From Candidatus Methylomirabilota bacterium (GTDB lineage: Bacteria; Methylomirabilota; Methylomirabilia; Methylomirabilales; CSP1-5): DNA of 64,000 bases. Under the pieces are notes generated by a model. The model worked only from the letters and a program-made list of their open reading frames with translations. It was not told the origin of the DNA and did not search any database. The DNA lies in assembly GCA_019456075.1 (NCBI GenBank), contig VRUN01000003.1:1794-65793 (forward strand). The letters run 5' to 3'. A program made the position numbers and the translations under genes. Shown here piece after piece: positions 7,337-63,512 of this stretch. Positions within the stretch are counted from its first letter, which is position 1; every line of letters begins with the position of its first letter.

Positions 7337-7431
7337 GGAGGCGGATTGGGTCTGGTGGCTCTCCCGGTCTTCAAAACCGGTGGGCCTGCCAAAAGCGGGC
7401 CGGTGGGTTCGATTCCCACACGCCTCCGCCA
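7337..7431 (+). tRNA. selC: tRNA-Sec (anticodon UCA)
   Basis: 95 nt starting GGAGGCGG and ending ACGCCTCC-G-CCA. Anticodon arm is CCGGT/CTTCAAA/ACCGG with TCA at 7371-7373. The long variable arm is GGCCTGC-CAAAA-GCGGGCC and the T arm is GTGGG-TTCGATT-CCCAC. Length and long extra arm are typical of bacterial selC. Confidence 0.9.
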
Positions 7432-9196: not shown

Positions 9197-9979
9197 TCAG
9201 CCCCCCTCGCCCCTGTCGCGCTCGTCTATCTCCACGGCGACGTTGAGGAGCAGGGTTTCCAGATCCTTATCAATGGTCTTGGGAAGATGTGACGCATCTC
9301 GGGACTCAAGGGGAATAAAGGAAAAGTTCCCACTCCGCTCCCGATAGGAAGCCACCACGAGCGCGTTGAATGCCCCTTCTCCCGTCTGTTTTCTGAACTC
9401 CGCGTGCACGACCCGGCCAGACTCAAAGACCATGGCCCCCTCGTCGGCCGACAGGGACAGGACGAGCCGCCCTGATTTCCGGCCAATGGAGACCGCTTGG
9501 GCCACCTCCGTCAAGTCCATAACTGCCAACGAACCCTGAAGGGTGGCTGATGGTGCCTCCTTTGAGGCCATTGGCGTCTTTGCGGCTCGGGCGGAGGGTG
9601 GCGGGGTCGAGACGCCGCGGAGTTTGAGCTGCGTGTCCACGCGGGTCACAAGAGTGGAAGGGGGGGAGTTTTCTGGAAAGACCGTGTCCGCCTCAGTCTG
9701 GGTCGCCACCAGTGCCATCTGTGTCGACCGATCGACCAGGAGGACAAACATAATTTCTTTGGTCGTGGGGTCGGCCCGGACCATTGAGCATAGCTCGGAG
9801 CCGTACATGTCCTCGAACATGGACCGACTGACGATCAGGTCCGGCCGGCGCTGCTTTACACTTGCCAGGGCAGAAGACCCGCTGGTGGCCATCGAGACCT
9901 CGTAGCCCGCCGCTTCGAAGGCCTTTTGAAGCCGAAGGCTGCCGTCTGAATCGGCGTCAACCAGAAGCACCATTGCCAT
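9197..9979 (-). CDS. Receiver-like domain + DUF4388-type domain protein
   Basis: N-terminal CheY-like fold (MAMVLLVDADSDG...PDLIVSRSMFEDMYG), with Arg apparently at the phospho-acceptor Asp position. The C-terminal region matches my memory of DUF4388 (LQGSLAVMDLTEVAQAVSIGRKSGRLVL...GAMVFESGRVVHA...GEGAFNALV). The ORF could also start at GTG 10012. Confidence 0.75.
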   Translation of the reverse strand: MAMVLLVDADSDGSLRLQKAFEAAGYEVSMATSGSSALASVKQRRPDLIVSRSMFEDMYGSELCSMVRADPTTKEIMFVLLVDRSTQMALVATQTEADTVFPENSPPSTLVTRVDTQLKLRGVSTPPPSARAAKTPMASKEAPSATLQGSLAVMDLTEVAQAVSIGRKSGRLVLSLSADEGAMVFESGRVVHAEFRKQTGEGAFNALVVASYRERSGNFSFIPLESRDASHLPKTIDKDLETLLLNVAVEIDERDRGEGG

Positions 9980-12278: not shown

Positions 12279-13733
12279 TTACCTCCCGGCGAGCTTTTCC
12301 CGGAGCAGATCGTTGATCAGTTGTGGATTGGCCTTCCCTTTGGTCACGCGCATTACCGCCCCGACCAATGCGGTGAGGGCTTTTTCCTTTCCCCCCTTGA
12401 AGTCGGACACGGGGCCAGGGTTTTGCTCTATCACCTGGTCCACGATCTGACTGAGCTCGTCTCGGTCACTGATCTGAACAAGTCCCTTCTCCTCGACGAT
12501 CGTCTCAGGGCTCTTCCTTGTCTGAATCATCTCCTCAAAGACCCCCTTCGCGATCTTCCCGCTGATGACCCCTCCCCGGATCAGGTTCAAGAGGGCGGCC
12601 AATTGGGCTGGGGTGACAGGGTTTTCGGAGATGTCTTTTCCTTCCCGATTGAGGTATCCCAAGAGCTCGGACATGATCCAGTTGCTCACCAGCTTCGCAT
12701 CCCGGTGGAGCTGAGCACATTCTTCAAAATAGTTCGCCAGTGCCTTGCTCCCGGTGAGCACTGCAGCATCATATTCCGGCAGCCCATACGCCTGCACGAA
12801 CCGCCGCCGCCGCTCTGCGGGGAGCTCCGGCAGGCTCGCCGCGATCTCCTCAATCCACGCAGGAGAAACCTCCACCGGGACCAGATCCGGTTCTGGGAAG
12901 TAGCGGTAGTCGTGGGCCTCCTCTTTGCCGCGCATGGGTAGGGTTACCTCTTCGTCAGCATCCCAGAGGCGCGTTTCCTGGATGACGGGTCGACCGGCCC
13001 TCAGGAGCGTCATCTGGCGCTGAATCTCATACTCCAATGCCCGCTGGACGTTTCTGAAGGAGTTCATGTTTTTGACCTCGGTCTTGACTCCGAAGTCCGC
13101 GGACCCCGACGGACGCACCGAGACATTCGCATCGCAGCGAAGATTCCCCTCCTCCATGTTCCCCTGGGACACGCCCAGATATTGCAGGATGGCCCGAAAC
13201 TGTTTCAGAAACTCCGCCGCCTCTTCCGGCGTGCGGAGATCGGGTTCCGTCACCATCTCAATCAACGGTACGCCGCATCGATTGAAATCCACCAGGCTGT
13301 AATCTGCCTGGTCCATCGCCCCGGCGTGGAGAAGTTTCCCTGCATCCTCCTCCAGATGAATCCGCCGAATCCTCACCCGTCTGGCCGTCCCATGGTCACT
13401 CATCTCCACAAAGCCGCCGACGGCCAGGGGAAGTTCGTACTGAGAGATTTGATAGTCCTTGGGCAGATCGGGGTAAAAATAGTTCTTTCGGGCGAAGCGG
13501 CAGTGCGGGGCGACCGTGCCATGGACCGCGAGCGCCGTTCGAATGGCGAATTCCACCGCTTTTTTATTGAGGACCGGCAAGACTCCTGGCATGCCCAGAC
13601 AGACAGGGCACGTCTGTGAGTTGGGGTCTTCTCCAAACCGGGTGCTGCAGCCGCAGAAGATCTTTGATTCGGTGAGGAGCTGGACATGCACCTCGAGTCC
13701 AATCACCGCCTCGTATGTCAGTTCAGCGTTCAT
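12279..13733 (-). CDS. gatB: Asp/Glu-tRNA amidotransferase subunit B
   Basis: 484 aa with full-length GatB pattern (VIGLEVHVQL, CPVCLGMPG, C-terminal YqeY-like tail). Confidence 0.96.
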   Translation of the reverse strand: MNAELTYEAVIGLEVHVQLLTESKIFCGCSTRFGEDPNSQTCPVCLGMPGVLPVLNKKAVEFAIRTALAVHGTVAPHCRFARKNYFYPDLPKDYQISQYELPLAVGGFVEMSDHGTARRVRIRRIHLEEDAGKLLHAGAMDQADYSLVDFNRCGVPLIEMVTEPDLRTPEEAAEFLKQFRAILQYLGVSQGNMEEGNLRCDANVSVRPSGSADFGVKTEVKNMNSFRNVQRALEYEIQRQMTLLRAGRPVIQETRLWDADEEVTLPMRGKEEAHDYRYFPEPDLVPVEVSPAWIEEIAASLPELPAERRRRFVQAYGLPEYDAAVLTGSKALANYFEECAQLHRDAKLVSNWIMSELLGYLNREGKDISENPVTPAQLAALLNLIRGGVISGKIAKGVFEEMIQTRKSPETIVEEKGLVQISDRDELSQIVDQVIEQNPGPVSDFKGGKEKALTALVGAVMRVTKGKANPQLINDLLREKLAGR

Positions 13734-13804
13734 AGTTCAGAGTTCAGTGTTGAAAGTTTATGGTTCAGAGTTCACGGTTCACAGTCCAACGTCCGATGTC
13801 GACC
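13721..13804. repeat. Heptanucleotide tandem array (12 units, GTTCANN family)
   Basis: gttcagc gttcata gttcaga gttcagt gttgaaa gtttatg gttcaga gttcacg gttcaca gtccaac gtccgat gtcgacc, all in one 7-nt register. The first two units overlap the first gatB codons. Confidence 0.9.
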
Positions 13805-14057
13805 AAGAGCGAGGAGGGGGTTCCTTCCGAGGCAGGCGACATCTGGCTTGCGTCTCCGCAAGAGTCCGGAGTCCTTCGGACTGGCCGGGGTCCCGCCGCC
13901 GAAGCGTAGCGCAGGTGGGGGTGGCCCGGATCGGCAAATTACAACGCCTAAGCATGCGTACCGTTGCCTCTGCACATCAAGTCCCCGGAGAATTGTGGCG
14001 CCGCCGAGGAAGGTCCCTCCGAGCTCTTCGCGATGGTCGGGCGTCGGTCGTCGAGAT

Positions 14058-14501: not shown

Positions 14502-14511
14502 CACCTTACTC

Positions 14512-14609
14512 GTTCAGGGTTCGTGGTTCAGGGTTCATGGTGGGAAGATCACCGTTCATTGTCCCCGTCCCGGTATTTCCTCTGAACCCTCAACTCTCAA
14601 CCCTGAACT
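14512..14609. repeat. Heptanucleotide array with inverted halves (14 units)
   Basis: The left half is gttcagg gttcgtg gttcagg gttcatg and the right half is ctgaacc ctcaact ctcaacc ctgaact, its reverse-complement family. All units share one 7-nt register. The array fills the gatA-GGCT spacer. Confidence 0.9.
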
Positions 14610-14610
14610 A

Positions 14611-16071: not shown

Positions 16072-16075
16072 ACTA

Positions 16076-16183
16076 GTTCACAGTTCACAGTTTGTCGTTC
16101 ATGGTTCATGGATAAGACCGACCACCTCGACACACGCCTTCCTATTTCAGTAAGCCCTGAACCCTGAACCATCCACCATGAAC
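16076..16183. repeat. Heptanucleotide array with inverted halves
   Basis: The left half is gttcaca gttcaca gtttgtc gttcatg gttcatg. The right half is cctgaac cctgaac catccac catgaac. The array fills the gatC-gatA spacer. Confidence 0.88.
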
Positions 16184-26084: not shown

Positions 26085-26824
26085 GGTTCGGTCAGCGGCT
26101 GCTCCCCTTCTCCTTCCGGCGTTGCCTCATCCGAGTCGACGAGCTGTCGAAGGAGGGCGCCGATAAGGAAGAGCTCCTTCCCGATGTCGTCCGAGCAGAA
26201 CCGCAGGCCGTGGAGCACGCTCTCTAGGGTGGGAGCACTGCGATTCCACACCACTTCCATCTCCGCCTCCACCGCGGGAAGGGTAAACCACGGGGGAATC
26301 TCAACGGTCAGCAGCGTGCGAGGAGAGAGCCCCTGGCCGACGGCGAGCTGCAGGCCGCCCTCGCTGATATTCTCGGCTTGACCTGTCACGCGCATATCTG
26401 GGGGAATCCTGCAGGCGACTTCCAGGGCGATCGGCAGGCGGACAGAGGCCCGGGGGGTCGGGCCCGCCTGGAGGACCAAGAGCCGTTCCCAGGTGGCAAG
26501 GTCGCCCCCCGTCAGTGCGGTGAATTTGAGACCCATCCGGGACGGGGGATCTTCGGCTTTCCAGACCACCACTGCTTCAGCCCGAGCGTTACGGTCCCCC
26601 GTGAGCAAGAGGAGGTTTATTGACGTACCCGCGGCCAGCGGCTGTGGGACCTCGAGCAGGAGCCCGTCCCGGCTCACGTTTTGCGTGAGACCGACGGTCC
26701 GGTAGACGGAGACCGCCGGGCTCTCACAAAAGACAGGCATCCGAAGCGGAAGCCGGGGATGCTGGCGGGTCGCGGCATGGTCCATGCGCTCTTCCACGGT
26801 CGCTCTAGGTCGCTTTGTATTCAT
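26081..26824 (-). CDS. Tandem (di-)PilZ domain protein
   Basis: There are two PilZ-like modules. The first is RQHPRLPL...QNVSRDGLLLE and the second is RASVRLPI...ENISEGGLQL. Confidence 0.78.
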   Translation of the reverse strand: MNTKRPRATVEERMDHAATRQHPRLPLRMPVFCESPAVSVYRTVGLTQNVSRDGLLLEVPQPLAAGTSINLLLLTGDRNARAEAVVVWKAEDPPSRMGLKFTALTGGDLATWERLLVLQAGPTPRASVRLPIALEVACRIPPDMRVTGQAENISEGGLQLAVGQGLSPRTLLTVEIPPWFTLPAVEAEMEVVWNRSAPTLESVLHGLRFCSDDIGKELFLIGALLRQLVDSDEATPEGEGEQPLTEP

Positions 26825-26908
26825 CCTCTATGTGGGTCGGTAGCCAATTGAGAATTAGGAGAGTCCTAGGATTATACCCCGGGGCATCTCCGTCGCACGC
26901 GATTTTGA

Positions 26909-27400
26909 TTACACGCTGAGCGCGCTTACAATCCCCTTCAGCCGAGCGGGACTAATGGGCTTCTCGAGAAACTCCAATACCTTCAGCTCCTCTGCCTGAG
27001 TCTTGACATGCTTACTCTCTTCAGCGCCAACCACAACGATGGCAATCGCTGGATTGAAGGCCCGGAAGATGCGCACGAGATCCCAACCGCTCAGGGCGAC
27101 GCCATGAACTGGAGGAAGGTCGAGGTCAATAATAGCGACCTCGAAAGGATAATCCTTTATCTTCTTGATGGCCTGCCAGCTATCTGCAGCGGTCTCGACG
27201 GCATACCCGGCTCTGAGGAGCGACACCCGTAATCCCTCTCGGCTATGGAGTTCATTATCCACGACAAGAATCTTCTTTTGTTCCGGTGCTGGCACACTAG
27301 GCTGCTCAACGCGGACCGGCGTTTCACCGCTTTCCGGCCTGCGCAGCAGGGCTCGTTTAGCCACACCACGCTTTTGAGGGGCAATTCGTCTTTTCCCCAT
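26909..27400 (-). CDS. Single-domain CheY-like response regulator
   Basis: KKILVVDNE...VAIIDLDLPP...LEKP receiver domain preceded by ~50 basic residues. Start chosen at ATG 27400. The longer ORF to 27583 has non-protein-like sequence and would cover the promoter. Confidence 0.78.
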   Translation of the reverse strand: MGKRRIAPQKRGVAKRALLRRPESGETPVRVEQPSVPAPEQKKILVVDNELHSREGLRVSLLRAGYAVETAADSWQAIKKIKDYPFEVAIIDLDLPPVHGVALSGWDLVRIFRAFNPAIAIVVVGAEESKHVKTQAEELKVLEFLEKPISPARLKGIVSALSV

Positions 27401-27550
27401 TTCGCTCTTTGGGAGGATGCCTTCAGGCGACCGTACGGACAAGAAGGAACGCTCGCCGTAAGTGCATCGAGCACTAGTGCTAGGGTCTGCCGTTATAAAG
27501 CACGCTGGTATGAAGGGCACTTCCAGAAAAAATCCTCTTGATGCGCATAA

Positions 27551-27566
27551 GGCAGGCTCCATGCCA
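27551..27566 (-). promoter_or_regulatory. sigma54-type -24/-12 promoter candidate for the REC-diPilZ-PilZ operon
   Basis: The minus strand reads TGGCATGGAGCCTGCC, about 150 nt upstream of ATG 27400. Confidence 0.6.
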
Positions 27567-27676
27567 AACCGGGCAAGATTCACTCAAGGAGCCAGGAACC
27601 CTCGATTTTCGGGGCATTGTTCCGCATCCCCAGCGTAAGAAATCTGGAGAGCGAGGCTTTTCCCAACTGCGATGCG

Positions 27677-27720
27677 TGTAAGATTTACACGGGGCCGATG
27701 TAAGGATTACACGCGGCCGA
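27677..27720. promoter_or_regulatory. Tandem 22-bp repeat with internal palindromes (candidate enhancer/UAS)
   Basis: tgtaagatttacacggggccga and tgtaaggattacacgcggccga are 19/22 identical. Each contains TGTAA-N3-TTACA. Their centres lie about 118 and 140 bp upstream of the -24 element. Confidence 0.5.
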
Positions 27721-27797
27721 GGGAGCGAAATTGCAGCCAGGGTAACGCGAGAGGACAGCGTGTTCCAAAGCGATGAAAGATGCCAAAGGCTATCGTT

Positions 27798-28241
27798 TCA
27801 TCTTACCGCGCCTACCAGTTCTTCTGCTAGGATGAGCGCCTTGTCTGCGAGATTATAAGCCCTGGAGAAATCCTTGACCGAAAGAGCCTCTCTGGCCTTG
27901 GACAGGAAGCTCTGAATGGTCGACACGAACTCCTGTTGGTCCTTGGCTAGCGTTTTCTGGTCAATGCGTTTAAACGTCTCCTCCGCTCCGTCGATTTTCG
28001 CCTCGGCCTGCTGCCTCAGCTGGGCCTCTTCCTCACGGCCCACTTGGGGAGCAAGCTTGCGAGGGGGAGCGGATGGCTCCTCTGTGACGGGCCCCGGTTT
28101 TGGCGGGGCCTCCCCAGGTTTCGATTTGGCACAGCCCGCAATGATGACTGCGAGGAGAATGAGGGAGCAGAGTGGTCTCGTTACTGCCGCTCCTTTCGAT
28201 TCTCTCGCCTCACTGCAAGGCATCTCTCTCTGCCAGCTCAA
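27798..28241 (-). CDS. Putative lipoprotein, function unknown
   Basis: Signal peptide with lipobox LAVIIAGC, a Pro-rich linker and a helical C-terminus. It immediately follows the histidine kinase gene. Confidence 0.65.
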   Translation of the reverse strand: MSWQREMPCSEARESKGAAVTRPLCSLILLAVIIAGCAKSKPGEAPPKPGPVTEEPSAPPRKLAPQVGREEEAQLRQQAEAKIDGAEETFKRIDQKTLAKDQQEFVSTIQSFLSKAREALSVKDFSRAYNLADKALILAEELVGAVR

Positions 28242-28249
28242 GATTGGGA

Positions 28250-30052
28250 CTATCCTACTGGAAGTCGCACGATCATGGTCGTCCCCCGCCCCACCTCCGA
28301 CAAGACCTCGATGAGGCCGTCATGCATCTGCACGACCCGGTAGACCAAGGAGAGGCCGATACCGCTTCCACCGGATTTTGTCGTGTAATAGAGCTGAAAG
28401 ATCTTGTCGGTGTCTTCAGGCGGGATCCCAACGCCGGTGTCGGCGATGCACACCTTGACAAACTCCCACCCCTCCCGTTCCGTCAGAATGTTGACGGTTC
28501 CTCCGGTCGGCATCGCCTGACAGGCGTTTAGCAGGATGTTCAAGAAGGCCTGCCTGAGCAGCTCTTCGTCGGCAGCCATGAGAGGAAGACTGCGATCAAA
28601 ATGGAAGGTGAATTGGATATCCTCTTTCTGCCATTCAGTCCCCAGGAGGGCCACCACATCTTTGAGTAGCGCGTTTAGGTCCAGCAGCTTCAAGCTCAGC
28701 TCCTCAGGGCGGATAAACTTCAAAAACCCCTGGACGACCCGATCCAAGCGCCGAATCTCGCTCCCGATGACCTCGAGGCTCTGGTGAACCTCTTCAGAGG
28801 GAGCGTCGAGCCTTTCCCTCAAGAGTTCGAGATGGATCATCATGGCGTTGAGAGGGTTTTTGACTTCGTGGGCCACGCCTGAAGTGAGCCTCCCAAGTGC
28901 CGTCAGTTTCGCCGAGTAGCTGATCAAGGACTGGACGGTCTTGATCGATTCCAGATCTTTCAGAGCTACCATGGCCCCCATCGCCCGCTGGGCATCCGTC
29001 ACGAAGAAAACCGACACCAGAAATTCCTTGTGGCCTCCGTCCCGGGGCACCGCGATGGCGGCATTGCGAAAGCCGGTTTGCTGCTCAAAGGCGTGCTCCA
29101 GCAAAGGGCGGAGGGGATGGGATAGCTCCAGCATCTCCTCCCACGGCCATCCGACGACTTGCTCGAGTGGCCTGGCCACAACGACCTCAGCGGCTTTGTT
29201 GAAGAAGAGGATCCGGCGGTCCTGGGTGAAGAGGATGATTCCATCCTCTAAGTGATCGACGACTTGCTGGAGTTGAGCCTTCTCGCTCAGCATCTTGAGG
29301 CGGTCTGCCTGCAGTTGCTGGCCCATGAGCTGGAGCTGGGAGGTCAGTTCACCAATCTCGTCCCCCCGACCGTGGGCGCCTCTCACCTCGAAGTCACCCC
29401 GCCCGATGCGGTCCACGTCCCGGGTGAGCTTCCGGATAGGCTTCAAAATCAGGGTGCCTAAACCCATCGCGACGAGCCAGGCCACGGGCAGGGCGAGGCC
29501 GGCGAGGGCAAGGCTTTTTCGCACCGAAGCGTTCAGCTCTCTTTTCAACAGGCTGGTGGCGATCCCGAGCCGGATGCTCCCGAAGGGCTTGTCGTTGAGG
29601 CTGAGGGGCAACTTGGCCTCGTAGATTTTTCCTGTCTCGTACAGGGCGAGGAAGCGGCCGATGGGATGGAGGGAGAGGAGCTCTTCTAGGCTTGGTCTCT
29701 CGGGGGCGTCTGCGCCCTCCTTTTCCCGTTCGCTGTGGAAGATCATCTTCCCTTTTTGGTCGGCGATCAGCGCGTACAGGAGGTGAGGCGAGTAACCGAT
29801 ACTCGCGTCAAGGAGACTTCTCAACTCCCCATCGCTCCTCAATGTCTCCGAGGGATCTTCGCCTCGCGCCCGAGAGAGGGAGCGGCTGCTTTGGGCGTAC
29901 ACTTGTCTGGCGATGAGCTCAGCCTGCCGCAACGCCTCTTGGACGACGACCCGAGTCAACTGGGAAAGGTGGATGAAGGTGGTGGTGGCCACCACCAGAA
30001 AGGTCAAGAGGGTAATGACCACCGCCTCTTTTCCTTTGACGCCAAACCGCAT
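28250..30052 (-). CDS. Sensor histidine kinase (TM-HAMP-PAS-HisKA-HATPase)
   Basis: 600 aa with H-box SGVAHEVKNPLN, an N/G boxes region (LLNACQAM, DTGVGI, GGSGIGLSLV) and a HAMP-like segment after the second TM. Confidence 0.9.
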   Translation of the reverse strand: MRFGVKGKEAVVITLLTFLVVATTTFIHLSQLTRVVVQEALRQAELIARQVYAQSSRSLSRARGEDPSETLRSDGELRSLLDASIGYSPHLLYALIADQKGKMIFHSEREKEGADAPERPSLEELLSLHPIGRFLALYETGKIYEAKLPLSLNDKPFGSIRLGIATSLLKRELNASVRKSLALAGLALPVAWLVAMGLGTLILKPIRKLTRDVDRIGRGDFEVRGAHGRGDEIGELTSQLQLMGQQLQADRLKMLSEKAQLQQVVDHLEDGIILFTQDRRILFFNKAAEVVVARPLEQVVGWPWEEMLELSHPLRPLLEHAFEQQTGFRNAAIAVPRDGGHKEFLVSVFFVTDAQRAMGAMVALKDLESIKTVQSLISYSAKLTALGRLTSGVAHEVKNPLNAMMIHLELLRERLDAPSEEVHQSLEVIGSEIRRLDRVVQGFLKFIRPEELSLKLLDLNALLKDVVALLGTEWQKEDIQFTFHFDRSLPLMAADEELLRQAFLNILLNACQAMPTGGTVNILTEREGWEFVKVCIADTGVGIPPEDTDKIFQLYYTTKSGGSGIGLSLVYRVVQMHDGLIEVLSEVGRGTTMIVRLPVG

Positions 30053-30053
30053 C

Positions 30054-31406
30054 TTACACCCCGTAGCGACGCAGCTTGTTGTGGAGAGTCTTCAGGCTCA
30101 CCCCTAAGATCTCGGCAGTTTTTGTCTTGTTATTGTTTACCGAGGCGAGCGTCCTCAGGATGAGGTCCTTCTCCGCTTTCTCGAGGCTGATCCCGACCGG
30201 GATGTTGACAAAGTCAGGACTCTCGTCCCTCGCCTTGCCCGCGAGGTTTGAGGGGAGGTGTTTTGGGGAAATGAGTTCAGTCTGGCAGGCGATAACAGCC
30301 CGCTCGATCGTATTCCGTAACTCTCGCACGTTTCCCGGCCATGGATACCGAGAGAAGAGTCGCAGCGTGGCTTCATCGACCGATTTGATCTGCTTCTCGT
30401 ATTTGGTGTTCAACTCCTCAATGAAGGCCTGAACGAGTAAAGGGATGTCCTCCCTCCGCTCCCTGAGAGGGGGGAGGGAAAGGTTAAAGACGTTCAAGCG
30501 GTAGTAAAGATCCTCCCTTAAGGATCCCTCATCAATCGCCTTCAGGGGATCCTTATTGGTCGCAGCCAGGACCCGCACATCCACCTTGATCTCTGCCTTC
30601 CCCCCGAGCCGCCTCACCGTACCGTCTTCAAGGATCCGCAGGAACTTGGCTTGGGTCGAAGGACTCATCTCGGCGATCTCGTCGAGGAAGATCGTTCCTC
30701 CATGAGCCATCTCGAAACACCCAATTCGCCGCTCCATCGCGCCGGTGAACGCCCCCCGCTCATGTCCGAAGATTTCGCTCTCCAACAGCGTCTCCGGGAT
30801 GGCCGAGCAGTTCACGGCGACGAAGGGCCGCTGGTTCCGGGGCGAAAGCTCATGGAGGATATGCGCCACCAGCTCCTTGCCAGTCCCACTCTCTCCGTAG
30901 ACCAGCACGGGGGCAGAGGTCGGGGCCGCGAGATCAATCAACCGGTAAAGGTCCTGCATGGTCCGGGCCGTGCCGACTATCTTCCCATACCCCCACACCT
31001 CCTTCAGCCGCCGCCGAAGGAGAGTCACCTCCCGAAGTGCTTCCCCTTTCTCCAGGGCCCGTTGGACCAGAGTTCTCAGTCTTGGAACGTCTACCGGCTT
31101 TGTCAGGAAGTCGTAGGCCCCCTCCTTCATGGCGGCGACCGCCGTCTCGATCGTGCCATGGCCGGTGAGGATGATGACCGTGGCGAAAGGCAACTCCTCC
31201 TGAATGGCCTTCAAGAGTCCTAGCCCATCGAGTTTAGGCATGACGAGATCGGCGATGACGACGGCTGGGAGGAAGGCCACGCCCTTCTGTAAAGCATCCT
31301 CCCCGTCAGACGCTTCCTCGACCTCGTACCCCCAGTTGGATAGGAGCGCCTTCAGCCCCTTTCGGGAAGCCCCTTCATCGTCGGTAACTAAGATTCGATG
31401 CCCCAT
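30054..31406 (-). CDS. sigma54-dependent response regulator (NtrC family bEBP)
   Basis: REC (ILVTDDEG...VIADLVMPKLDG), AAA+ with GESGTGKELVA and GAFTGA, and a C-terminal Fis-type HTH (KTKTAEILGVSLKTLHNKLRRYG). ATG 31406 has a GGAGGGAGG RBS. Confidence 0.93.
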   Translation of the reverse strand: MGHRILVTDDEGASRKGLKALLSNWGYEVEEASDGEDALQKGVAFLPAVVIADLVMPKLDGLGLLKAIQEELPFATVIILTGHGTIETAVAAMKEGAYDFLTKPVDVPRLRTLVQRALEKGEALREVTLLRRRLKEVWGYGKIVGTARTMQDLYRLIDLAAPTSAPVLVYGESGTGKELVAHILHELSPRNQRPFVAVNCSAIPETLLESEIFGHERGAFTGAMERRIGCFEMAHGGTIFLDEIAEMSPSTQAKFLRILEDGTVRRLGGKAEIKVDVRVLAATNKDPLKAIDEGSLREDLYYRLNVFNLSLPPLRERREDIPLLVQAFIEELNTKYEKQIKSVDEATLRLFSRYPWPGNVRELRNTIERAVIACQTELISPKHLPSNLAGKARDESPDFVNIPVGISLEKAEKDLILRTLASVNNNKTKTAEILGVSLKTLHNKLRRYGV

Positions 31407-31746
31407 CCTCCCTCCAATGCTGTGCAAAACACCAAGGAGTGCGCGAGATCTAGGCGAGGGCCATGCCTTACCCTGGCACCATCATGGATTTCTCCGTCGA
31501 GGGCCGGAGTATCACCCAAGCTGCGATCCCTGTCAAGAGCCTGGTGCATAACACGCCAGGGTGAATCGGAGGAGGCGATCTGCCGGACCACCCAGACGGT
31601 CCTCGTGGATGGCGGCTTCCCGTGAGACCTAAGCGACCACCCGATTCTGCAAGCGAGCCGCTTCCCCAGGAGGGCCTGAGTCGAGAGGTCCTTGATCAAC
31701 CCTGAAGGGAATTGAGATCAGATGTGCAAGATTCTTTCATGCTGAC

Positions 31747-32187
31747 TCACGATTGCTCTTTGTACGCAATCGCAAGAAGTCGGGCCTGTTTGGCCCACAT
31801 GCGGCGACGGGCCGCGGGGGTCGTATCGTCGTAGCCCAAGAGGTGGAGGATGCCATGGACTAAAAGGAGAGCAAGCTCCTGATCAAGGGAATAGCCGTGT
31901 TCTTTGGCCTGGCGAGCGGCGGTCTCGACCGAGATGACCACATCGCCTAGGAGATGGGGCTGCGGTGATGGGGAACCCTTTTGCTGCGGAAAAGCCAGGA
32001 CGTCGGTGGAACGATCATGGTTCAAATACGTCTGATTGAGCCGCCGAATAGCCCGATCACCGACGAGAAGTACCGAGACCTCATTCCTCGGTCTGCCCAA
32101 GACGTATAATGTCTTCTCCCCCACCCTTTTTAGCCGTGACAGCCCGACCCGCCGCCTCTTTTGCCGATTTCGGATCTCTATCCTCAT
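31747..32187 (-). CDS. ybeY: rRNA maturation endoribonuclease YbeY
   Basis: HGILHLLGYDD zinc motif. Start taken at MRIEIRNRQ (ATG 32187), which overlaps the upstream gene by ~107 nt. Confidence 0.88.
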   Translation of the reverse strand: MRIEIRNRQKRRRVGLSRLKRVGEKTLYVLGRPRNEVSVLLVGDRAIRRLNQTYLNHDRSTDVLAFPQQKGSPSPQPHLLGDVVISVETAARQAKEHGYSLDQELALLLVHGILHLLGYDDTTPAARRRMWAKQARLLAIAYKEQS

Positions 32188-33757
32188 CCCCTTTCCTCTC
32201 ACCCTCCTTCTTCTTGACCTCTTCGAACTTGTACCCGGGATAGTCCACCCGGTGGTGGTGGATGGCTGTGAGGACGCGGACAAAGGCCTTGGCAATCCGG
32301 TGCAGGTCCTTCAGGGTGAGATCACATTCGGACAGTTCCCCCTCGATAAAGATCGTGTTCACGATCCGATTGACCAGTCCTTGCACCCGGGCCGGCGTGG
32401 GGTCGGTCAGTGTCCTCCCCGCCGCTTCGACCGCATCGGCCAGCATTAGAATCGCCGCCTCCCTCGTCTGGGGCCTGGGGCCCGGGTAGCGGTAATCCTC
32501 TTCCTTCACCTCGCCGAGATCAGGATCCTGGGACTCTTTGGCCCTCTCGTAAAAATAGGTGACGAGGCGAGTGCCGTGGTGCTGCGGAATCATGTCTACA
32601 ATGGCAGGCGGCAGCCGGTGTTCCAGGGCCATCTCGATCCCATCCTTGACGTGGGAAATGAGGATGAGACTACTCAGACTCGGAGACAGCTTATCGTGCC
32701 TGTTCATAGCGTCCATCTGGTTCTCAATAAAGTAGGCTGGTTTCTTCACTTTGCCGATGTCGTGATAGTACGCGCCGACCCGACAGAGGAGAGTATTGGC
32801 GTCGATAGCGTCGGAAGCCGCCTCCGACAGCTCCCCCATCATCAAGCTATGGTGGTACGTCCCGGGAGCCGTCTTCATGAGTTGCTTGAGCAGGGGCTGG
32901 TTCAGGTTGGAGAGTTCGAGGAGTTTCAGATCGGTGGTGGTCCCGAAGAGATACTCCAGGATGGGGAGAAGCGTTGAGGCGAAGAGGGCAACCACCACCC
33001 CGTTCACGATGCAGGCCACCAGATCATACGCCAACGCTGGGGCTGACCAGCCGTAGATCGGGATGAAGACAACAATGGAGCCGACATTGGCCAAGGCGAC
33101 CCAGCATCCCGCCTTGAAGAAGGCGGTTCGGTCCTGGGACCGCCGGATGCTAAACGCCCCGACGATAGCCCCGATCAGTCCAAACAGGAGGAAAGTCACC
33201 TCATCCGTCACCATGACCGTGGTCAGTATGCCGAGGGCAATAGCCCCCCCAAAGGCCGTTCGGGCATTAAAGAGGACGGAGAGCAGCACACTGCCCAGGG
33301 CCACGGGGATCGTGTAGTAGAAAGACTGAAGAGAAATGAAGGAAAAACTGTGGTTTAAGGACTGGAGGACGACCAGGAGAAAGCGGTTGATCAGGATGGC
33401 CAGGAGGACCACCGTCCCAAGGAGGTACAGGTGCTTGGGGGACACTACCGGCCGGACCTCGAGGAACCGAACATAAAAGTAGAGGGCCCCGAGCACGAAA
33501 AGGGCGAGACAGCTGATCGCCACGACCGAAACAGGCCCTAGGGGTAAGGGACGATAGGAGGCAACCACCAGGCCTACGGTCACGACCAGCAGGATCCCCA
33601 GGACCAGGGGAATTACGGGTCGCTCCTCCGAGGTCCGAAAGAGTCTCCCCATCGGGGAGAGGCGGTAGCGATAGGCAGGCAGGGTCGTCGGCTTGCTGGC
33701 CATCTTGCTGTCGTTACCCTTCTTCGCCCCTGACGCAACCCACTGCGAGATCTTCAT
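32081..33757 (-). CDS. 7TM-HD (HDIG) membrane phosphohydrolase, PgpH/YqfF-like
   Basis: Multi-TM N-terminal region and an HD domain (YHHSLMMGELS, YYHDIGKVKKP). Confidence 0.88.
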   Translation of the reverse strand: MKISQWVASGAKKGNDSKMASKPTTLPAYRYRLSPMGRLFRTSEERPVIPLVLGILLVVTVGLVVASYRPLPLGPVSVVAISCLALFVLGALYFYVRFLEVRPVVSPKHLYLLGTVVLLAILINRFLLVVLQSLNHSFSFISLQSFYYTIPVALGSVLLSVLFNARTAFGGAIALGILTTVMVTDEVTFLLFGLIGAIVGAFSIRRSQDRTAFFKAGCWVALANVGSIVVFIPIYGWSAPALAYDLVACIVNGVVVALFASTLLPILEYLFGTTTDLKLLELSNLNQPLLKQLMKTAPGTYHHSLMMGELSEAASDAIDANTLLCRVGAYYHDIGKVKKPAYFIENQMDAMNRHDKLSPSLSSLILISHVKDGIEMALEHRLPPAIVDMIPQHHGTRLVTYFYERAKESQDPDLGEVKEEDYRYPGPRPQTREAAILMLADAVEAAGRTLTDPTPARVQGLVNRIVNTIFIEGELSECDLTLKDLHRIAKAFVRVLTAIHHHRVDYPGYKFEEVKKKEGERKGDEDRDPKSAKEAAGRAVTAKKGGGEDIIRLGQTEE

Positions 33758-58552: not shown

Positions 58553-58568
58553 CAGCAGCCACCGGCGC

Positions 58569-58687
58569 GAGACATGAGACCGGAGACGGGAGATCGGAGA
58601 CGGGGACCACAGACCCTAGACTCCAGCCTCTAGTCTCCTGTCTCCAGTCTAGTTGCGGACAGCAGACAGCTGATTGCTGATCAGCCG
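58569..58687. repeat. Heptanucleotide tandem array (17 units, GAGACNN / AGTCTCC / CAGCTGA families)
   Basis: gagacat gagaccg gagacgg gagatcg gagacgg ggaccac agaccct agactcc agcctct agtctcc tgtctcc agtctag ttgcgga cagcaga cagctga ttgctga tcagccg, all in one register. The array ends at the mazG-like stop codon. Confidence 0.88.
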
Positions 58688-62076: not shown

Positions 62077-62513
62077 CCACGATCTACAATGAGGGTCACC
62101 GGACCATCATTTTCCAATTGGACCAGCATTCGCGCCCCAAAAATCCCCGACTGGACGGGGACCCCACGTCCGCGAAGGCCCTGGACAAACCGATCGTAAA
62201 GCGGTTCTGCCTCCGCTGATCCTGCCGCCGCCGTGAAATCGGGACGCCTCCCCTTTTCGACATCGCCGTACAGGGTAAACTGGGATACCACTAACGCCTC
62301 TTTGCCAGTCTCTAGCAAAGACCGATCCATTCGTCCCTCGCCATCCTCGAGCACCCGAAGATGGGCAATCTTCTCTGCCATCCAGTCTACATCCTCCTCT
62401 CGATCCCCCCTGGCCACCCCCAGGAAGATGATCAGGCCAGGGCCGATCTGCCCCACGGTCCGCTCCTCTACGATGACGGCAGCCCGGCGCACCCGTTGAA
62501 TGACCGCGCGCAT
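62073..62513 (-). CDS. dtd: D-aminoacyl-tRNA deacylase
   Basis: MRAVIQRV...VSQFTLYGD...GRRP...FGA.M, 146 aa. Confidence 0.93.
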   Translation of the reverse strand: MRAVIQRVRRAAVIVEERTVGQIGPGLIIFLGVARGDREEDVDWMAEKIAHLRVLEDGEGRMDRSLLETGKEALVVSQFTLYGDVEKGRRPDFTAAAGSAEAEPLYDRFVQGLRGRGVPVQSGIFGARMLVQLENDGPVTLIVDRG

Positions 62514-62528
62514 CTCCCCTTCAATGCT

Positions 62529-62675
62529 GCTATCAGCTATCAGCAGTCGGCCGTCCCCAGTCGCAAAAACGGTTCAGGGTTCAGAGTTCACGGTTCACAG
62601 GTAAGACAAATTCGAAATTCGAATTTCGACATACCGCTCGGTCATCGGTCGCCGGTCATCGGTTATCGGCCGTCA
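62529..62675. repeat. Heptanucleotide tandem array (21 units, four unit families in one register)
   Basis: gctatca x2, gcagtcg gccgtcc ccagtcg caaaaac, ggttcag x2, agttcac ggttcac, aggtaag acaaatt, cgaaatt cgaattt cgacata ccgctcg, gtcatcg gtcgccg gtcatcg gttatcg gccgtca. The array spans the whole pilD-dtd spacer. Confidence 0.9.
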
Positions 62676-63512
62676 GAGACCCCAGCGGACCAGGCGAAGG
62701 TAGCCGGCGATAAGCTCTTCCCCCCAAAAGAGGGCCAGGACCGCCCCCAGAGCGAGGAAGGGTCCGAAAGGCATCGGATCCTTCCGGCTCTTCTTTCCCG
62801 AGGCGAGGAGGACGAGGGCGATGACAGATCCCGAGAGGGTCCCGAGAAAGATGGTGAGGAGGGCGGCTCGCCACCCGAGGAGCGCACCGACCATTGCGGT
62901 AAGCTTGATGTCCCCGCCCCCCATCCCTCCCCGACTGAAAACTGCCACGAGATACAGGATTCCGCCCCCCACGAGCATCCCCAGGAGCGCGTCCAGCGGC
63001 GTGGGGGGAGAGAACGAGAGAGGGGCCCCATGATCGTTGGTCAGGAGCAACGCCGCGAGGACGCTCCACGTGAGGCCGACGGCAATCCCGGGAAGGGTAA
63101 TGACGTCAGGGACGATCTGATGCTCCAGGTCGATAAAGGTCACGATCACCAACGCCGCAACAAAGGCCCACAGGATGCCGGTGTGCCACGAGAGGCCAAA
63201 CCGAAAGATGGTCAGGGCAAAGAGAGATCCCGTGAGGAGCTCTACGACGGGGTACTGCCAGGAGATCCGGTGCCCGCAGCTCCGGCACTGCCTCCTGAGG
63301 AGGAGGAAACTGAGTACGGGGATGTTGTCGTGGGCCTTAATGCTCGTCCGGCAATTGGGACACCGGGAGCGGGGAATGACGATGCTCTCCCCTTGAGGGA
63401 GTCGATGGATGCACACGTTGCAAAAGCTGCCCACAACGAGTCCCAGCAGGAAACTGGAGGTGACCAGAAACGGATTACTCACCGACCTTGACCCCCAGCT
63501 TCTTGAGCTCAT
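62673..63512 (-). CDS. pilD: Prepilin peptidase (A24 family)
   Basis: GLVVGSFCNVCIHRLP, a Cys-rich zinc motif (CPNC...CRSC), and GGGDIKL / the second Asp region. The start may instead be GTG 63482. Confidence 0.88.
   Translation of the reverse strand: MSSRSWGSRSVSNPFLVTSSFLLGLVVGSFCNVCIHRLPQGESIVIPRSRCPNCRTSIKAHDNIPVLSFLLLRRQCRSCGHRISWQYPVVELLTGSLFALTIFRFGLSWHTGILWAFVAALVIVTFIDLEHQIVPDVITLPGIAVGLTWSVLAALLLTNDHGAPLSFSPPTPLDALLGMLVGGGILYLVAVFSRGGMGGGDIKLTAMVGALLGWRAALLTIFLGTLSGSVIALVLLASGKKSRKDPMPFGPFLALGAVLALFWGEELIAGYLRLVRWGL

Follow-up and report, generated by a model that had tools for sequence, protein, structure and literature searches.

Heptanucleotide repeat arrays between pilD and dtd of a Methylomirabilota bacterium: a probable product of slippage and turnover

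Introduction

We analysed a 64,000-nt stretch of DNA from a Candidatus Methylomirabilota bacterium (the window), in which the gap between pilD, encoding a prepilin peptidase, and dtd, encoding a D-aminoacyl-tRNA deacylase, can be written as a row of heptamers. An earlier reading of this DNA, made without database searches (the sequence-only reading), described positions 62529–62675 as a spacer of 21 heptamers that belong to four families and stand in a single register, and took the kept phase to argue for a dedicated mechanism. The question raised by the locus is whether heptamers of different families are indeed held in phase and, if they are not, how such a gap arises. Our analysis indicates that the gap is probably a slippage-generated, rapidly turning-over cluster of heptanucleotide simple-sequence-repeat (SSR) arrays. 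Its repeats are of the same kind as the short tandemly repeated repetitive (STRR) sequences of cyanobacteria and other bacterial intergenic heptamer SSRs.

STRRs are 7-bp repeats that sometimes form hairpins between the genes of an operon; their function is unknown (PMC2670836), and roles in transcript stability or translational coupling have been proposed for them (PMC2670836, PMC4692102). According to Mrazek (2007), as cited in PMC4679880 and PMC4692102, heptamers are the most abundant class of long SSRs in many bacteria and are mostly intergenic, and polymerase slippage has been proposed as their cause. Mixed heptamer assemblages have been reported in Microcystis and Elizabethkingia (PMC4679880). 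Geobacter metallireducens carries multicopy heptanucleotide elements (4x GGACCGG and 5x MTYCTGA), which their authors considered regulatory without a test (PMC2700814).

Results

Heptamer arrays in the pilD–dtd gap

The coordinates of the spacer and its division into 21 heptamers could be reproduced exactly. The spacer lies between pilD and dtd as described, except that its last unit runs into pilD, whose stop codon (TGA at 62675–62673) supplies the final 3 nt of the 21st heptamer. Self-identity within 62529–62675 reaches 0.607 at lag 7 and falls to 0.466 at lag 14 and 0.349 at lag 21, compared with 0.15–0.28 at other lags and a lag-7 mean of 0.255 across the window. Tandem Repeats Finder (TRF) reports four period-7 arrays, all within 62529–62669, with 2.3–4.6 head-to-tail copies of the unit. 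The heptamer arrays are thus real.

We call the arrays A to D, counting from dtd towards pilD (coordinates and units are given in Table 1). On the sense strand, array A reads CGACTGG GGACGGC CGACTGC TGATAGC TGATAGC and ends 15 nt ahead of the dtd ATG, and array B reads GTGAACC GTGAACT CTGAACC CTGAACC. Array D begins at the pilD stop codon, with sense units CGATAAC CGATGAC CGGCGAC CGATGAC. Neither the distance from array A to the ATG (15 nt) nor the length of the gap (159 nt) is divisible by 7. All four arrays are non-coding and fall in the space that separates the pilD stop from the dtd start, and every other period-7 cluster in the window is likewise intergenic. An assembly artefact is ruled out, since seven further contigs from separate assemblies share the same gap.

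A 376-aa open reading frame (ORF) on the plus strand (62361–63491) runs antisense through pilD and the entire gap. It stays open across the gap because the antisense heptamer units carry no stop codons, and a simple longest-ORF gene calling chose it over pilD and dtd. We regard it as spurious, being antisense to the Pfam-supported pilD and dtd.

One grid, several families

Three families describe the arrays, rather than the four first proposed. The GCTATCA-type units of array A and the GTCATCG-type units of array D form a single family with the consensus G[CT]N[AG]TC[AG], showing 55% identity at offset 0 and 47% at the next best offset, 4. A and D are in phase at a distance of 70 nt (10 units), for which the chance expectation is 1/7. 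Not every unit has a family: 6 of the 21 fit none (CAAAAAC, AGGTAAG, ACAAATT, CGACATA, CCGCTCG and, in part, CCAGTCG). At three junctions the identity between neighbouring units drops to background, 1–3 of 7 positions, and the periodicity is broken there.

A period-7 grid has no defined origin for each unit family, and therefore any concatenated period-7 arrays tile in one grid; tiling them in this way merely renames rotated units. In a junction-offset test, each of the three junctions received an insert of 0–6 random bases, 343 combinations in all. These contain 10–12 adjacent pairs of units identical at 5 or more of 7 positions, against 10 pairs observed, and all 343 equal or beat the real sequence, so that the single register across families has no information content.

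Other measures of register agree with this result. For lags above 28 nt there is no excess at 0 mod 7 (0.259, against 0.21–0.30 for the other residues), and the TCAG core common to A and B stands at 62533 and 62574, an offset of 6 mod 7. A cross-family register defined by similarity was also tried and rejected: offset 0 is found only for A–D, A–B and B–D are best at offset 6, and the pairings with array C peak off register (A–C at 1–2, B–C at 3, C–D at 5). With phase undefined between families of different units, a dedicated 7-nt mechanism does not follow from phase-keeping. The sequence-only reading had also set such a mechanism against independent microsatellites, yet the arrays act as separate ones, in that only the purest of them varies and relatives carry other arrays or none.

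Phase-keeping at other loci had been suggested as a check. GTTCA-type four-unit arrays are common in metagenomes (at least 120 stretches in our scan), and phase was read in 80 loci (L097–L176). Among the 34 adjacent same-family array pairs in these loci, 13 are in phase, which is above the 14% expected by chance, and 21 are out of phase; phase is thus not generally kept. This is the pattern expected of whole-unit slippage that is followed by other indels. Whole-unit slippage together with decay explains the phase observations, and no protein or RNA that reads a 7-nt period need be invoked. The main value of the locus is methodological: a common 7-nt grid laid over different repeat families is no evidence for a phase-keeping mechanism.

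Variation among strains

The strain set consists of seven public contigs (L081–L087) that encode a Dtd identical to that of the window. Array C has three copies in the window, L081, L083, L084 and L086 and two in L082, L085 and L087. In three of the seven contigs with identical Dtd, the purest array is thus shorter by exactly one AATTTCG unit, through a 7-nt indel. Length polymorphism in whole units, for which the sequence-only reading had recommended a population check, is therefore present. Whole-unit changes are confined to array C, the other arrays being invariant in copy number; array B shows a 1-nt deletion and a C>T exchange in L081 and an A>T exchange in L082.

Differences between the contigs affect 14 of 1056 aligned positions in the gap (1.3%), 17 of 3318 in pilD (0.5%) and 13 of 5878 in xerD (0.2%). 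The gap's density of single-nucleotide polymorphisms (SNPs), higher than in the flanking genes, points to relaxed constraint. Impure arrays elsewhere hold their copy number constant across 3–11 contigs: the array upstream of gatB is invariant in 11 contigs, the gatC–gatA gap is identical in 11 and the gap at 58553–58687 is identical in 3. As regards the features of phase-variable loci, copy number in the pilD–dtd gap is polymorphic and the SSR lies outside any ORF; the gap has no predicted sigma-70-type promoter.

An 18-nt palindrome in array C, TCGAAATTCGAATTTCGA, is found in the window only, where it arises from a private T>A exchange at 62624. Contigs that keep three array C units read TCGAATTTCGAATTTCGAATTT in its place. 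Being private to the window, the palindrome is ruled out as a conserved operator or hairpin.

A 27-nt indel, AGTCCGAAGGACTCCGGACTCTTGCGG, was observed in the GGACT–gatB gap at 13947–13973 (minus-strand sense; alignment A3 columns 189–215), outside the heptamer array. It divides the strains into 5, with the window among them, and 6, and holds GGACT/AGTCC inverted motifs.

The orthologous gap in relatives

The nearest homologues of Dtd, at 84% identity, bear the annotation Candidatus Methylomirabilales or candidate division NC10; among the scanned genome contigs, the best Dtd match has 79% identity. The orthologous gap measures 26–27 nt in L090 and L095 and has no array there. In L089 (102 nt), CGATGAC-type units directly after the pilD stop, as in array D, are followed by GAGACC/GGTCTC inverted arrays. 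The 265-nt gap of L088 holds AATCAGC x4 and, as in array A, GCTGATA/GCTGACT ahead of dtd; that of L094 (194 nt) is a hairpin with 60-nt arms, and that of L001 (about 80 nt) contains GAGACCG/GTCTCC. In L092 and L093 the gap is split by an inserted PF05635 gene, bracketed by inverted arrays.

Arrays at the ends of the gap recur in relatives. L088 and L094 also have GCTGAYA-type units immediately upstream of dtd, and the family of array D occupies the same place in L089. Given this likeness of the end arrays and the differing content otherwise, arrays A and D look older and B and C recent, and all of the gap content looks dispensable.

The inserted gene of L092 (9419–10000; also in L093) encodes a 120-aa protein of PF05635, the family of 23S rRNA intervening-sequence proteins, or bAvd; Dtd of L092 has 77% identity. 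The gene is flanked by CAGACNN x7 and the inverse NGTCTGN x6, with 40-nt arms that are 75% complementary. These bracketing arrays resemble the RNase III-cut stems around 23S rRNA intervening sequences, which fits RNase III-type processing of the hairpin forms.

Dispersal of the arrays

A lag-p scan of the window and seven related loci yields 30 arrays of period 7 and 0, 4, 0, 1, 1 and 0 arrays of periods 5, 6, 8, 9, 10 and 11, respectively. The bias towards period 7 in the lineage is thus strong (30 arrays against 0–4). Five gaps in the window bear arrays (13734–13830, 14505–14610, 16072–16183, 58553–58687 and 62514–62672), all of them between co-directional genes.

The same unit families occur at several loci. 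The GTTCA family is found at 4 loci in the window, and its presence in the gat operon, already pointed out by the sequence-only reading, is confirmed at 13720–13792, 14512–14541 and 16075–16111. The CGATGAC family is present in L001 and L089, in L001 at a non-orthologous site (9481–9501), and the GCTGAYN family in L088, L090, L094 and L095. AATTTCG, the family of array C, occurs at no other locus among those fetched.

An exact 23-nt block, CTGTGAACCGTGAACTCTGAACC, is common to array B (62578–62600) and the array upstream of gatB (13762–13784), 49 kb apart. The block keeps the order of unit variants at both loci, and 100 shuffles gave 0 matches; the 29-nt stretch around it is 93% identical between the two arrays. 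This identity suggests that multi-unit blocks are copied between loci, beyond local slippage.

Array units also reach the gat start codons. The start of gatB lies inside its array, with the ATG and the first four codons after it (MNAEL) formed by the units CTGAACT ATGAACG CTGAACT (13720–13733), and the gatA ATG is 4 nt from an array. At 58576–58650, GAGACCG turns unit by unit into its reverse complement AGTCTCC with the 7-nt period kept, through GAGACGG, GGACCAC, AGACCCT, AGACTCC, AGCCTCT and AGTCTCC. The transition is possible because GG-AGA-CC and GG-TCT-CC match at 4 of 7 positions in register.

Folding and regulatory signals

The pilD–dtd gap folds no better than shuffled sequences, with z values of +1.04 (sense) and +0.37 (antisense). 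It has no stem-loop of the kind seen in repetitive extragenic palindromic sequences or bacterial interspersed mosaic elements (REP/BIME) or in STRR hairpins, which three other gaps of the window do have. A structured inverted repeat was considered and rejected, the only long one being an 11-nt pair at chance level. The gap gives no match to Rfam 15 (none at E≤1), no promoter or terminator is predicted in it, and no ORF of at least 20 aa runs along its sense strand. Three terminator-like matches fall within pilD.

The three other gaps pair a forward array with an inverted copy and form long hairpins, with z values of −2.5 to −4.4 (Table 1); such pairings are found in many intercistronic gaps of the lineage. 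In the gatC–gatA hairpin, the clearest case of a preference for the sense strand, stability is much higher on that strand (antisense −20.2 kcal/mol, z −0.8), and the gap at 58553–58687 also carries a GCTGAT-type segment. The direct-type array upstream of gatB folds no better than shuffles (z about +0.9). Six hairpins were tested, the three of the window and three of L001 (5915–5995, 7385–7470 and 9500–9595), and have z values of −2.4 to −4.9. Five of the six are more stable on the mRNA-sense strand, which implies G–U pairs. L001 also shows a nested arrangement at 9481–9600, in which a CGATGAC array encloses GTGGTTA/CCACCAG arrays.

Discussion

Origin of the gap

We favour an origin of the pilD–dtd gap by slippage and turnover. 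Slipped-strand mispairing at replication would gain and lose 7-nt units; array C varies by one unit, and it is the slippage that we infer. The arrays would then decay by point mutation and by the occasional indel of a length not divisible by 7, as seen in the 1-nt deletion of L081 and the raised SNP density. The unit families would be drawn from a lineage-wide repertoire, and multi-unit blocks would be copied between loci, presumably by ectopic recombination or gene conversion. The common 7-nt grid would be a by-product, with register undefined between unrelated families. Within an array, and between A and D as pieces of one array, register would persist because most indels are whole units. 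The pilD–dtd gap shows no sign of sequence-specific function and is most likely tolerated filler; in relatives, the intercistronic gap is as short as 26 nt.

Several observations weigh against this explanation. Arrays A and D stand at the same gap ends in relatives with 81–84% Dtd identity, which selection rather than inheritance could explain, and all five array-bearing gaps end 0–24 nt from the next start codon, a proximity that matches the effect on translation proposed for such repeats (PMC4679880, PMC2670836). Moreover, different species have a unit repertoire in common at non-orthologous sites. Among the 30 distinct units of 41 arrays (window, L001 and L088–L095), 12 contain AGAC/GTCT and 9 contain CTGA/TCAG, with about 2 expected for CTGA; raw counts are doubled by counting both strands, and 12 and 9 refer to distinct units. 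No within-unit shuffle reached the observed maximum. Slippage alone leaves the near-exclusive period of 7 and the restricted unit repertoire unexplained. The CTGA and GACCGG cores are also present in the TAACTGA repeats of Beggiatoaceae and in the Geobacter elements MTYCTGA and GGACCGG.

In a bolder interpretation, the Methylomirabilales arrays would be intercistronic elements that belong to one system throughout the lineage, have spread through copying and come in direct and nested-hairpin forms; their overlap in repertoire would imply a conserved 7-nt-specific generator or reader. We consider this a long shot. The repertoire cores AGAC/GTCT, CTGA and GACCGG overlap those of Geobacter, Beggiatoaceae and cyanobacterial heptamers, and if the system were real, this would point to such a generator or reader. 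A polymerase footprint, a single-strand-binding protein covering one heptamer or RNase III-type processing of hairpins could play this part.

Alternative explanations

The arrays could instead be functional intercistronic mRNA elements, which we think unlikely. They may leave the stretch ahead of dtd free of structure, modulate mRNA stability or translational coupling, or provide binding sites, one per heptamer, for a single-strand-binding protein of the cold-shock type with an oligonucleotide/oligosaccharide-binding (OB) fold. Roles of this sort have been suggested for the STRRs of cyanobacteria and the TAACTGA repeats of Beggiatoaceae (PMC4679880, PMC2670836), and they would suit the position of the five gaps between co-directional genes and close to start codons, as well as the starts of gatA and gatB, which are abutted by arrays and where no Shine-Dalgarno motif was seen on reading the sequence. 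Most gene pairs in the window are co-directional, however. The non-random repertoire and the recurrence of A-type and D-type arrays at the same gap ends in relatives also speak for function, but the families are otherwise wholly different between relatives, copy number is polymorphic, and SNPs are denser than in the flanking genes. The array-free gaps of L090 and L095 show that dtd needs no array. In the pilD–dtd gap the sense strand is unfolded, and the sense units carry stop codons while the antisense is open; yet this orientation is inconsistent, as the sense unit AATCAGC of L088 has no stop, and a consistent orientation of stop codons was ruled out because it varies between loci.

A decayed remnant of a hairpin that once spanned the gap, built of nested forward and inverted heptamer arrays and having its 5' arm replaced, appears improbable. 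Before its decay, the element would have formed a stem-loop in the mRNA that worked either as a stabiliser or as a site of RNase III-type processing. Relatives provide parallels: in the L094 gap, GCAGTCA-type units on the 5' side and GCTGAYA-type units on the 3' side form the 60-nt arms with 75% complementarity, L088 combines NNTCAGC arrays at the 5' end with GCTGAYN at the 3' end, and L001, L089 and L092 pair GAGACC/CAGACC arrays with their inverses. The window itself retains GCTGATA x2 at the 3' end of the gap, and three of its other gaps are such hairpins; five of the six hairpins tested are stabler on the sense strand. In the window, though, arrays A and D are direct rather than inverted (55% direct identity against at most 38% inverted), and neither strand of the gap folds better than shuffles. 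Even if true, a decayed hairpin would be a matter of history rather than of present function, and it is compatible with slippage and turnover. The proposal of the sequence-only reading, that register-specific slippage or a 7-nt-periodic protein or RNA reader keeps all arrays of the gap in phase, is already largely refuted, and we give it next to no credence. It can draw on the 10-unit spacing of A and D, which the 7-nt indel of some contigs preserves, on same-family arrays elsewhere in the window that hold register through degenerate units, and on the enrichment of in-phase pairs in the 80 metagenome loci. That enrichment, however, is predicted by whole-unit slippage by descent, and most same-family neighbours in other genomes (21 of 34) are out of phase. 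The parse is indifferent to arbitrary junction offsets, lags between arrays show no excess at 0 mod 7, and A and B are offset in their TCAG core; furthermore, L081 has lost a single nucleotide and relatives have the same gap without arrays.

Relation to known heptamer repeats

The gap resembles the cyanobacterial STRRs (Calothrix, Anabaena, Nostoc) in its short tandem 7-nt arrays with several families per genome, located at many dispersed non-coding sites, often between operon genes and some of them hairpins (as in the STRR of hupS–hupL). It differs in its host, which belongs to NC10 and not to the heterocystous cyanobacteria, in its units (GGTTCAG, CGATGAC, GCTGATA and AATTTCG in place of the three heptanucleotides of Calothrix) and in being of the direct, non-hairpin type. 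STRRs in the strict sense (STRR1–3) have a cyanobacterial host and a described unit. Having neither, the gap is STRR-like and stands outside the named set.

Heptamer SSRs in the genome-wide survey of Mrazek et al. (2007) are likewise over-represented and intergenic, as exemplified by Xanthomonas GGGAATC and Nostoc GGGGAYT (PMC4692102). They mostly comprise about 4 heterogeneous units, sometimes in inverted pairs, and their length and sequence at the same gene pair are highly variable between close relatives (PMC4692102). In contrast to the Xanthomonas and Nostoc repeats, the units described here are not G-rich and allow no G-quadruplex, and several unrelated families are packed in one gap. The TAACTGA repeats of marine Beggiatoaceae, cyanobacteria and Bacteroidetes (PMC4679880) are intergenic, have 2–6 direct copies, often directly upstream of start codons, and have the CTGA core in common with many NC10 units. 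BOGUAY, however, has essentially one dominant heptamer and the NC10 lineage many, and the TAACTGA unit itself is present neither in the gap nor in any listed array. The Geobacter elements likewise consist of four or five heptamers in tandem, are present at dozens of sites and have units that resemble NC10 families (GACCGG, CTGA). They are copies of a single stereotyped element, however, and are found within genes too, whereas the NC10 arrays are heterogeneous and, in the sequence examined, confined to intergenic positions.

Since the repeats of the gap differ in sequence and host from each named set, we place them in the general kind of heptamer SSRs. In literature searches covering heptamer SSRs and the Methylomirabilis lineage, we found no earlier description of such repeats. 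Though ordinary in itself, the gap brings NC10/Methylomirabilales into the group of bacteria in which heptanucleotide repeats have colonised intergenic DNA. The density of arrays in this lineage is high, with 5 gaps in 64 kb. Public Methylomirabilis transcriptomes exist and, if they are usable, make the lineage a reasonable testing ground for questions about heptamers.

Other features of the window

The features discussed above are compiled in Table 1. In a public contig with identical pilD and dtd, the two genes carry Pfam Peptidase_A24 and Tyr_Deacylase domains, respectively. The stop codon of dtd and the start of xerD overlap by 4 nt.

Table 1. Coordinates of genes, repeat arrays and array-bearing gaps in the window
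Feature	Coordinates	Strand	Basis and remarks
dtd, D-aminoacyl-tRNA deacylase, 146 aa	62073..62513	-	ORF call; Pfam PF02580
pilD, prepilin peptidase, 279-aa ORF	62673..63512	-	ORF call; Pfam PF06750 and PF01478 on the identical gene of L081
pilD–dtd intercistronic gap, 159 nt	62514..62672	-	Heptamer arrays inside; co-directional genes
TRF array GCTATCA x2.3	62529-62544		TRF
TRF array GGTTCAG x3.9	62571-62597		TRF
TRF array AAATTCG x3.1	62608-62629		TRF
TRF array TCGGTCA x4.6	62638-62669		TRF
Array A: GCTATCA x2, GCAGTCG, GCCGTCC, CCAGTCG	62529..62563		TRF, lag analysis
Array B: GGTTCAG GGTTCAG AGTTCAC GGTTCAC	62571..62598		TRF
Array C: AAATTCG-type x3	62606..62629		TRF; purest of the arrays
Array D: CCGCTCG GTCATCG GTCGCCG GTCATCG GTTATCG GCCGTCA	62634..62675		TRF, lag analysis
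Direct-type GTTCA-family array abutting/overlapping the gatB start codon	13720..13792		TRF; contains the 23-nt block of array B
gatA to GGACT-like gene gap, GTTCA-family array and inverted copy	14505..14610	-	Long imperfect hairpin; sense −42.6 kcal/mol, z −4.4
gatC–gatA gap, GTTCA-family array and inverted copy	16072..16183	-	Hairpin; sense −35.1 kcal/mol, z −2.6
MazG-like to HEAT-repeat gene gap, GAGACCG into inverse AGTCTCC arrays	58553..58687	-	Hairpin; z −2.5 and −3.3

Elsewhere in the window, positions 27677–27720 hold two copies of a 22-nt unit with the palindrome TGTAA-N3-TTACA (GTGTAAGATTTACAC / TGTAAGGATTACAC). This tandem unit lies about 100 nt upstream of a minus-strand gene that starts at 27583 and looks like a tandem operator; the region 26800–32200 gives no Rfam match. 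A tRNA-Sec with anticodon TCA (7337–7431) is the only Rfam or ARAGORN match in the window.

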